Origin: a virus
Lineage: Duplodnaviria > Heunggongvirae > Uroviricota > Caudoviricetes
DNA: 16,210 nucleotides
Virus record (IMG/VR): IMGVR_UViG_2534681773_000025
Strand: one strand, 5' to 3'
The notes beneath the pieces were generated by a model that ran no database searches, was not told where the DNA came from, and saw only the letters and a list, made by a program, of their open reading frames with translations. Within the stretch, counting starts at the first letter, position 1, and each line of letters starts with the position of its first letter. A program made the translations under genes and the position numbers. Positions 1,533 through 2,591 of the stretch are shown piece after piece.

Positions 1533-2591
1533 TCATCCGTTCTGGCTGACTAAATCCTGTACTTCCCGAACCGTCTGCTCAAAACGTTCAGTCTCCAGCT
1601 CAACGCCAATTGCACGACGCCCGAGCGCCAGTGCCGCTTTCACTGTCGAACCCGACCCCATGAAAAAATCTGCAATCAGGTCACCCGGACGACTGCTAGC
1701 GCTGATTATCTGCTGCAGCATTTCTGCCGGTTTTTCGCACGGATGTTTCCCGGGATAGAACTGCACCGGTTTATGCGTCCACACATCGGTATACGGCACC
1801 TGCACCGTCACGCCAAAATACCGCCGCAGATGCTTATATTCACTCAGCAGTTCCATATACTGCCGGTTCAGCTCACTGTATGTGCTGACCAGTTGGTAAT
1901 GGGACTTTTCCAGTTCTCCCCGCTGATGTTTCTCTTCTGCCACCCGGGCAAACAGCGACTGTAATTTCAGATAATCGCTTTCGTTCGGTAGCTGCCACTG
2001 ACTGGCACTGAACCAGTGCGACACCATGTTTTTCTTTCCTGTGGCATCTGCAATCTGTTTTGCCGTTATCCCAAGAGCAGCACGCGCATCACGAAAGTAA
2101 GAAATCAGCGGGGCCATCACATGCTGTTTCAGTGCCCTGCCCTTCGCCTCATCGCCATCATCTTTCGGACGATACGGCCCCTGATAATGTTCCGCGAACA
2201 GAATGCGTTCTGTGGCCGGAAAATACGCCCGCAGGCTTTCCTTGTTGCACCCGTTCCAGCGTCCGGACGGCTTCGCCCAGATAATATGGTTCAGCACATT
2301 GAAGCGTTCACGCATCATGATTTCAATGTCAGATGCTAGGCGATGGCCACAGAACAGGTAAAGACTTCCGGCAGGTTTCAGCACCCGCCAGAACTGCGCC
2401 AGACACTGGTCCAGCCACTTCAGGTAATCATCGTCGCCCTTCCACTGGTTATCCCAGCCCTCGGGCTTCACTTTAAAGTATGGCGGGTCTGTGACTATCA
2501 GATCGACAGAGTTTTCCGGTAAGGTCTGGATAAATTCCAGGCAATCAGCGTTGATTAACTCACAACTGGATATTTTTACAGTATTAGCCAT
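1533..2591 (-). CDS. Orphan DNA N6-adenine methyltransferase (DPPY catalytic motif before a C-terminal FxGxGS SAM motif)
   Basis: 352-aa ORF with DPPY (motif IV) near the N-terminus and DFFMGSGST (motif I) near the C-terminus, the circularly permuted order of N6/N4 DNA methyltransferases. No restriction-enzyme partner is adjacent. Confidence 0.85.
   Translation of the reverse strand: MANTVKISSCELINADCLEFIQTLPENSVDLIVTDPPYFKVKPEGWDNQWKGDDDYLKWLDQCLAQFWRVLKPAGSLYLFCGHRLASDIEIMMRERFNVLNHIIWAKPSGRWNGCNKESLRAYFPATERILFAEHYQGPYRPKDDGDEAKGRALKQHVMAPLISYFRDARAALGITAKQIADATGKKNMVSHWFSASQWQLPNESDYLKLQSLFARVAEEKHQRGELEKSHYQLVSTYSELNRQYMELLSEYKHLRRYFGVTVQVPYTDVWTHKPVQFYPGKHPCEKPAEMLQQIISASSRPGDLIADFFMGSGSTVKAALALGRRAIGVELETERFEQTVREVQDLVSQNG

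Follow-up and report, generated by a model that had tools for sequence, protein, structure and literature searches.

An M.EcoGII-Family Adenine Methyltransferase Gene in the Late Region of an Escherichia coli Prophage and the Conserved Structured Leader That Precedes It

The N6-adenine methyltransferase M.EcoGII, encoded on a prophage of Escherichia coli O104:H4 strain C227-11 (EGT69837.1), methylates up to 99% of the adenines of DNA in any sequence context, and in vitro it also acts on single-stranded DNA, on RNA:DNA hybrids and, with an activity below that on DNA, on RNA (PMC5778455). Both M.EcoGI and M.EcoGII are deleterious when expressed and silent in growing lysogens, and the relatives of M.EcoGII were described as 'a very large family' carried by well-defined E. 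coli prophages, phage 1720a-02 being named among the carriers (PMC5778455). In M.EcoGII, a helix-turn-helix four-helix recognition domain and a charged linker replace the sequence-reading domain, and all reconstructed ancestors of the family keep non-specific activity on both DNA and RNA (PMC11551740). The enzyme has become a commercial reagent for chromatin footprinting, and the authors who described it left open how so harmful a methylase stays off and when it turns on. Here we analyze a stretch of 16,210 nucleotides (nt) of viral DNA (IMG/VR record IMGVR_UViG_2534681773_000025; this whole stretch is hereafter called the window), which is, as judged by its sequence, a Qin-like lambdoid prophage of E. 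coli. Its minus-strand gene at 1533..2591 had been predicted to be an orphan N6-adenine DNA methyltransferase; sequence comparison indicates that it is not a new orphan, but a member of the already known and characterized M.EcoGII family. The methylase itself thus adds nothing new, since more than a third of the complete E. coli genomes carry a member of this family. For the question of its control, the window and about 60 related loci offer targets for mutagenesis, namely two terminators, a small winged-helix protein and a leader with two competing folds.

Several relatives of the window methylase have been described before. M.EcoGI and M.Eco95JB1I/II of O111:H- are prophage paralogues of the same family (about 92-95% identity) that are assigned as non-specific in REBASE and are silent in the methylomes of growing cells; they are different alleles, however, and none of them has been characterized biochemically as fully as M.EcoGII (PMC6602927). 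Homologues of 92-93% in O111 strains had likewise already been listed as 'nonspecific' (PMC6602927). Hia5, Hin1523 and Nma1821 of Mu-like prophages, functionally its nearest analogues, resemble the window methylase in being phage-borne, near-sequence-independent N6-adenine methylases; they confer broad restriction resistance and occupy a late-expressed cargo position, the place of mom (PMC3299994). Differently from the window methylase, these enzymes are Dam-related, do not belong to the PF01555 beta class and come from another phage type. The similarity ends at the DPPY and FxGxG motifs, indicating convergent function and not homology.

The open reading frame (ORF) of the window methylase is intact, encodes 352 amino acids (aa) from an ATG start and fills exactly 1533..2591. 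The gene and its two diagnostic motifs, both of them invariant across the family alignments, are as follows:

1533..2591, minus strand: M.EcoGII-family beta-class N6-adenine methyltransferase gene (ORF, Pfam match, identity with M.EcoGII, shared 90% cluster)
2478..2489, minus strand: motif IV, DPPY, catalytic, aa 35-38
1650..1664, minus strand: motif I, FMGSG, S-adenosylmethionine (SAM) binding, aa 310-314

The motif I region reads F-M-G-S-G-S (aa 310-315), and the beta-class order follows from the N-terminal position of motif IV, the central position of the recognition region and the C-terminal position of motif I. The permuted motif order of the original prediction is therefore confirmed, together with the enzyme class: the Pfam family N6_N4_Mtase (PF01555) matches with 151 bits (cut-off 26.7; 6e-44) over aa 29-340 and profile positions 1-219 of 221, i.e., the whole catalytic domain. 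PADLOC matches the protein to MTase_II at 4.9e-165, and NCBIfam returns CcrM and other adenine-specific enzymes, all below threshold. In a sequence search of solved structures, M.RsrI (1EG2), CcrM (6PBD), M.MboIIA (1G60) and 8URK/9C3U were matched (E 1e-25 to 1e-15), all of which have the catalytic Rossmann core, including DPPY and FxGxG, in common with the window methylase. M.RsrI, CcrM and M.MboIIA are site-specific enzymes. The alignments with the solved structures are confined to the catalytic core (aa 8-118 and 281-343), and no similarity to them was detected across aa ~120-280, which comprise the recognition domain and the linker.

That the gene stands alone, as had been predicted, also holds. 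No restriction endonuclease adjoins it, the flanks being a winged-helix ORF, a Q-like gene, transfer RNA (tRNA) genes and an esterase gene; Pfam finds no nuclease in the flanking genes, and a small ORF and a DUF968 protein (both described below) are unmatched in PADLOC. No endonuclease was found in the late region of the window, and thus no pairing of the kind that makes up a Type II restriction-modification (R-M) system.

The window methylase and M.EcoGII are identical at 330 of 348 positions (95%) with no gaps, and both fall into one 90%-identity cluster of 4845 members. For M.EcoGII we used the sequence in Table S1 of PMC11551740, which as machine-read contained three errors (NHHIW, TKVPQYY, GRRRAIG). 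Natural homologues served to correct these, and of the three corrected candidates one is identical to a protein of O104:H4 outbreak genomes (349 aa; AFS73976.1, AKE83937.1). The uncorrected sequence, which gave 94% identity with gaps and had no exact database match, was set aside. Motif order, recognition domain and linker are as in M.EcoGII. Within the recognition domain, the limits of which (aa 160-237), like the charged linker, were defined in PMC11551740, there are only four substitutions, and nothing of the charged linker is missing. At the C-terminus, the window protein extends 3 aa further (...LVSQNG vs. ...LIV). The 95% identity and the activity retained by the ancestors suggest that the window methylase would modify adenine in any context. 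Since the characterized family has no recognition motif, no discrete modified motif is to be expected, and an activity on RNA would not speak against a role on DNA, because M.EcoGII itself methylates RNA in vitro.

The gene is widespread: it is carried by 2021 of 5426 complete E. coli genomes, a single one of which may have as many as 7 copies, and by 247 phage records, mostly of Stx2 phages, in which it is annotated as 'DNA methylase'. Phage 1720a-02, mentioned above, is among the matches, and the exact window protein is present on 416 contigs. One insertion aside, the window as a whole matches E. coli O111:H2 strain 12A at 99.9% identity.

In the window, the late direction of the phage runs from high to low coordinates, the methylase and the Q-like gene both lying on the minus strand. 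In this direction, the features around the methylase are:

3164..3730, minus strand: Q-like antiterminator gene (DUF1133 / Phage_antitermQ; PGAP start at 3718)
3063..3090, minus strand: intrinsic terminator, candidate tR' (AAAGAGCCCGC-TTTTT-GCGGGTTTTTTT), ~75 nt past the Q-like stop codon
2742..2939, minus strand: 65-aa winged-helix ORF (WP_000917751.1; phrog_331), from PGAP annotation, PHROG match and AlphaFold
2728..2755, minus strand: intrinsic terminator-like hairpin and T-run (GCCTTC-CTCAGT-GAAGGC TTTTTTATTT) at the end of the small ORF
2592..2726, minus strand: structured 5' leader abutting the methylase ATG (conservation, pair counts, covariance model)
1243..1492, minus strand: three tRNA genes, CAU anticodon (RefSeq tRNA-Ile), Arg-UCG and Arg-UCU, an ileZ-argN-argO-type cluster of Stx/lambdoid phages
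1..753, minus strand: NanS-p-type sialate O-acetylesterase gene, 5' part (DUF1737 and SASA), the next gene of the late operon, running off the window

M.EcoGII shares this prophage slot: Q, small ORF, leader, methylase, three tRNAs, NanS-p and holin. The order at the O104:H4 locus (DUF968, Q, small ORF, methylase, tRNA(CAU)/Arg/Arg, SASA esterase, holin) is found again in the window up to the esterase, with the same tRNA trio behind the methylase. Because close identity is combined with the same locus order, we regard the window gene as the positional orthologue of M.EcoGII. There are two differences: the upstream Q is of the DUF1133 type in the window and of the PF06530 type at the M.EcoGII locus, and the latter has cargo genes on the reverse strand, between its Q and small ORF, that are absent from the window. 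Beyond the window, a nearly identical genome locus (L002) continues past the esterase with holin, DUF1327 and lysozyme genes, and terminase to capsid genes lie further downstream in locus L001. The DUF968/HNH-like gene at 4093-5148 precedes Q also in every related locus examined, and the module of small ORF and methylase follows four Q families (DUF1133, PF06530, PF06323 and PF03589) and precedes holins in Escherichia, Citrobacter, Salmonella, Klebsiella and Pantoea.

The Q-like protein matches Pfam DUF1133 with 349 bits (3.7e-105), Phage_antitermQ (PF06530) with 33.1 bits (cut-off 26) and phrog_753, 'anti-termination protein Q-like', at 5.8e-81; DUF1133 proteins have been listed as Q antiterminators on the basis of HHpred (PMC8136144). 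Two intrinsic terminators (3063-3090 and 2728-2755) thus lie between the Q-like gene and the methylase. The former appears as a 13-bp hairpin in both the minimum free energy (MFE) and the centroid folds, and an equivalent post-Q terminator is present at the O104:H4 and phage 1720a-02 loci. The methylase had been placed immediately downstream of the Q/tR' region. It does follow the Q-like gene and the candidate tR' on the same strand, 'downstream' here reading from high to low coordinates because the gene is on the minus strand; the small ORF and the second terminator intervene, however, and the original prediction mentioned neither the small ORF nor the structured leader between Q and the ATG. 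A sigma-70 scan between Q and the methylase found no promoter, and the late promoter is therefore not placed; by eye, only a weak promoter-like site, TTGCTT-17-TTCAAT, follows the Q-like gene. The stretch from the end of the Q-like gene to the first terminator (3064-3137, minus strand) weakly resembles IsrK, a Salmonella prophage small RNA (sRNA), with a score below threshold (19.8 bits, E 0.25), and it may represent a short late-promoter leader transcript, by analogy with lambda 6S RNA.

The small ORF matches phrog_331 at 5e-37 and bears the NCBI label 'TrmB family'; Pfam gives no match above threshold, its sole and weak hit being TrmB. It is conserved as a protein across genera, with two conserved cysteines only. 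Its AlphaFold model (pLDDT 89.6; helix-helix-helix-strand-strand) predicts a winged helix, for which Foldseek returned only generic winged-helix matches (best E 3e-3) that suggest no function. The small ORF lies upstream of the leader in 103 of 110 viral contigs and is missing from a few loci, e.g., L009. A longer version starting at 3062 (106 aa, the extension being covered by phrog_331) was rejected in view of 1- and 3-nt indels relative to O104:H4 and the 65 aa annotated by PGAP.

The leader fills the ~135 nt that separate the second terminator from the ATG. It is near-identical in the window, at the M.EcoGII locus and in phage 1720a-02, where the neighboring small ORF diverges, and across Enterobacterales genera it is better conserved than the methylase coding sequence. 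It is not translated, as judged from single-base indels among related sequences; a leader ORF of 45-60 aa (2584-2766) was accordingly rejected as coding, no three-base periodicity being seen either. A leader profile abuts the ATG in nearly all of the 80 Enterobacterales genome loci with upstream DNA, and it reaches down to Providencia and Yersinia, the methylases of which are 62-63% identical. In viral contigs, a 21-nt word from the 5' end of the leader has 121 matches, of which 111 are followed by the methylase ATG 129-131 nt later; the others lie at contig ends (4), before frameshifted methylase genes (2) or before other downstream sequence (4). The element was thus found almost only before M.EcoGII-family genes. 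No description of an RNA or regulatory element at this position was found in literature searches, and none of the 4227 covariance models of Rfam 15 overlaps 2592-2726 at gathering score or E <= 1.

The supported fold of the leader has four helices:

2704-2715/2685-2696, minus strand: helix P1
2674-2683/2655-2664, minus strand: helix P2
2643-2650/2615-2622, minus strand: helix P4, enclosing P3
2636-2640/2626-2630, minus strand: helix P3

In a sequence-only alignment, 88% of the cells are paired, compared to 28-39% with slid partners, and 13 pairs are compensatory (2-8 when slid), corresponding to 55 such cells (5-18 when slid); none of 500 shuffles reached the observed pair counts. Results were similar after realignment with a covariance model, a procedure that leans towards structure: the two alignments together give 88-90% paired cells vs. 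26-40%, with 13-15 compensatory pairs. The strongest covarying column pair of the whole leader alignment is in P2 (C-G 27, U-A 11, A-U 11, U-G 5), and the leader covariance model scores 120.7 bits in the window.

A second pairing of the same sequence excludes the four-helix fold:

2716-2721 with 2675-2680 and 2657-2668 with 2592-2604, minus strand: alternative leader pairing

It joins ATGGGC (2716-2721) to GCTCAT (2675-2680) and GGGTCACAAGCA (2657-2668) to TGCTTATTGATCT (2592-2604), the latter being the 13 nt before the methylase ATG, which has no Shine-Dalgarno sequence. This pairing potential is 93% conserved (28-44% when slid). Upon constrained folding of 59 sequences, the two folds are nearly isoenergetic, on average 1.7 kcal/mol apart, and in the window leader the occluding fold is the minimum (-63.1 vs. 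-56.0 kcal/mol). The alternative, start-occluding fold is compatible with these data and not proven. The P2 loop (GGTCA) could also form a pseudoknot with the TGATC that precedes the ATG; this pairing is well conserved, with covariation not above controls, and was kept only as a hypothesis.

Two further observations concern the leader. A GATC (Dam site) lies at 2594-2597 (minus strand), 2 nt before the methylase ATG, and almost every leader retains it (TGATCTATG or TGATCCATG). In Xenorhabdus and Photorhabdus (loci L065-L092), a shorter, diverged leader precedes the methylase ATG by ~90-110 nt, which keeps GGTGAAATG, the P1 hairpin and a TTCACC able to pair around P1, and is without P3 and P4. 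These leaders were missed by the narrow profile and seen by the covariance model, which gives 21-25 bits at the Photorhabdus loci, and by direct reading.

From the identity, domain content, synteny and two terminators, which are observed, we infer late Q-dependent expression and an anti-restriction role. The gene occupies the cargo ('moron') position that stx takes up in Shiga-toxin phages, after the Q antiterminator gene and ahead of the lysis genes. In the lysogen, transcription from the late promoter would stop at the terminators and leave the methylase silent, while upon induction RNA polymerase modified by Q would read through them into the gene. The methylase would then place N6-methyladenine (m6A) broadly on replicating phage DNA, and the progeny would be protected from the many restriction enzymes of Types I, II and III whose cleavage is blocked by adenine methylation. 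In a weaker step, the leader may gate translation, the four-helix form freeing the start region and the alternative form pairing the 13 nt before the ATG. We give a probability of roughly 0.8 to the reading of the gene as an M.EcoGII orthologue that is silent in the lysogen, depends on Q and broadly methylates progeny DNA against restriction, with gating by the leader as its less secure part. The authors of the M.EcoGII study likewise propose late Q-dependent expression that protects progeny DNA (PMC5778455). Epigenetic regulation, the other role that had been suggested for the gene, is unlikely, because enzymes of this family are non-specific, toxic and silent in lysogens.

Several points weigh against this reading. 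The window protein differs from M.EcoGII by 18 substitutions, including S230 and Y232, where the family has near-invariant P and H; the prophage, being Qin-like and carrying an insertion sequence (IS), may be defective; a consensus sigma-70 scan of the minus strand at 3086-3200 found no promoter between Q and the first terminator; and the alternative leader fold shows almost no covariation. In addition, DNA with 80% m6A transforms E. coli 10^4-10^5-fold worse (PMC5778455), so that the dosage of methylation may matter.

The 18 substitutions could be taken to indicate a sequence-specific solitary enzyme with a discrete recognition motif, all the more as the majority of beta-class enzymes are site-specific, some RefSeq copies are named 'site-specific DNA-methyltransferase' and a similar recognition domain is predicted for M.PflMI, which is site-specific (PMC11551740). 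The RefSeq name is, however, a generic automatic label, and M.PflMI lacks the charged linker included in the 95% gapless identity with M.EcoGII. As only four of the substitutions fall within aa 160-237, and far more distant ancestral reconstructions are still non-specific, we consider sequence specificity very improbable. A main substrate other than phage DNA, i.e., RNA or the host chromosome in a late takeover or exclusion function that modifies host or phage transcripts or disrupts transactions of host DNA, would agree with the in vitro methylation of single-stranded RNA and RNA:DNA hybrids by M.EcoGII, with its toxicity on expression, with the poor establishment of heavily methylated DNA and with the guarding of the gene by terminators and a structured leader, as is typical of toxic genes. 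The activity of M.EcoGII on RNA is nevertheless below that on DNA, and unrelated non-specific adenine methylases at the mom position of Mu-like prophages protect DNA (PMC3299994), which points to DNA protection as the selected trait and makes such a substrate unlikely.

About as unlikely is that the gene is a silent passenger, never expressed, in a decaying Qin-like remnant. The Qin-type immunity genes (dicA, dicC, dicB and ydfABC) and the IS insertion would fit this explanation, as would the lack of expression of M.EcoGI and M.EcoGII in culture; against it, the ORF, leader, small ORF, Q-like gene and terminators are all intact, the identical protein is present on 416 contigs and the closest genome retains holin, lysozyme, terminase and capsid genes downstream. 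We therefore retain the reading of a Q-dependent late gene that would protect progeny DNA.

As to control, a working analogy is offered by com-mom of phage Mu, in which a small protein encoded upstream and an RNA hairpin over the start site decide on translation. In both cases a toxic, broadly adenine-modifying enzyme is, or here would be, made late, and in the window the 65-aa ORF, the structured leader and a possible start-occluding helix precede it. The parallel has limits: Mom, unlike the window enzyme, does not transfer methyl groups; the small protein of the window, a predicted winged helix with only two conserved cysteines, is not homologous to Com, which has a zinc finger; and, unlike in com-mom, the small ORF and the leader are separated by a terminator. 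With modest confidence, this analogy suggests that the leader acts as a translational gate for a dangerous enzyme. The more specific proposal, that it is an undescribed cis-regulatory RNA, a translational switch that licenses the toxic methylase at the right lytic moment and may be flipped by the 65-aa protein, by SAM or S-adenosylhomocysteine (SAH) or by the methylase, is tentative, and we rate it somewhat below even odds. As far as we found, neither the leader RNA nor its association with the small winged-helix ORF has been described, and we present both as a lead, not as a result. If the leader is a switch, it would represent a new phage regulatory RNA and a practical handle for expressing such enzymes.

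Downstream of the methylase, the first tRNA (within 1417-1530, minus strand) is read as Met (CAU) by ARAGORN and as tRNA-Ile, ileZ type, by RefSeq. A promoter-like site, TTGAAG-17-TATTAT, lies at 1530-1502 between the methylase stop codon and this tRNA, and the tRNAs may therefore have their own promoter. The methylase gene contains 8 CGG and 4 ATA codons, which the prophage tRNA trio is presumably able to read. Between the tRNAs and the esterase gene, an STnc100-family sRNA is found at 976-1166 (minus strand; Rfam, 138 bits).

Other cargo of the prophage and its relatives was also noted. Varied genes flank the module of small ORF and methylase in related prophages (L008, 653-3331; L009, 1298-3699; L010, 2614-3501; L012, 5524-8412; and the O104:H4 locus L004, 2920-4381), including an EcoRII-type R-M pair, which is separate cargo in the Citrobacter locus L008, HicAB toxin-antitoxin genes, an NA37-domain gene and AcrVA2-like and Cas1-like genes; the gaps around the module look like a hotspot for defense and counter-defense genes. 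In the early-right (nin) region of the window, two overlapping genes at 5913-7647 (minus strand) form a Rosmer anti-phage defense pair according to PADLOC (RmrA, a helix-turn-helix and ImmA/IrrE peptidase protein, 6e-105; RmrT, 4.6e-25). The immunity region is of the Qin type, with dicA, dicC, dicB, ydfA/B/C and hokD, the last adjoined by a sok antitoxin RNA at 7963-8137 (minus strand; Rfam, 114 bits). Within 8699-11286, a plus-strand pair encodes a 235-aa protein of unknown function and a class I SAM-dependent methyltransferase that weakly matches mad2, beside a minus-strand SMEK-domain gene (PADLOC Aga_REase-PNTD, 1.4e-20); these genes may be further defense cargo. Finally, the insertion that distinguishes the window from the near-identical strain 12A measures ~1.33 kb (~11553-12879) and lies between the SMEK-domain and DUF977 genes; its minus-strand ORFs of 301 and 136 aa are typical of an IS3-family element, and its ends TGGATTTG... 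and ...GGGGGCCAGTCTA suggest IS2.

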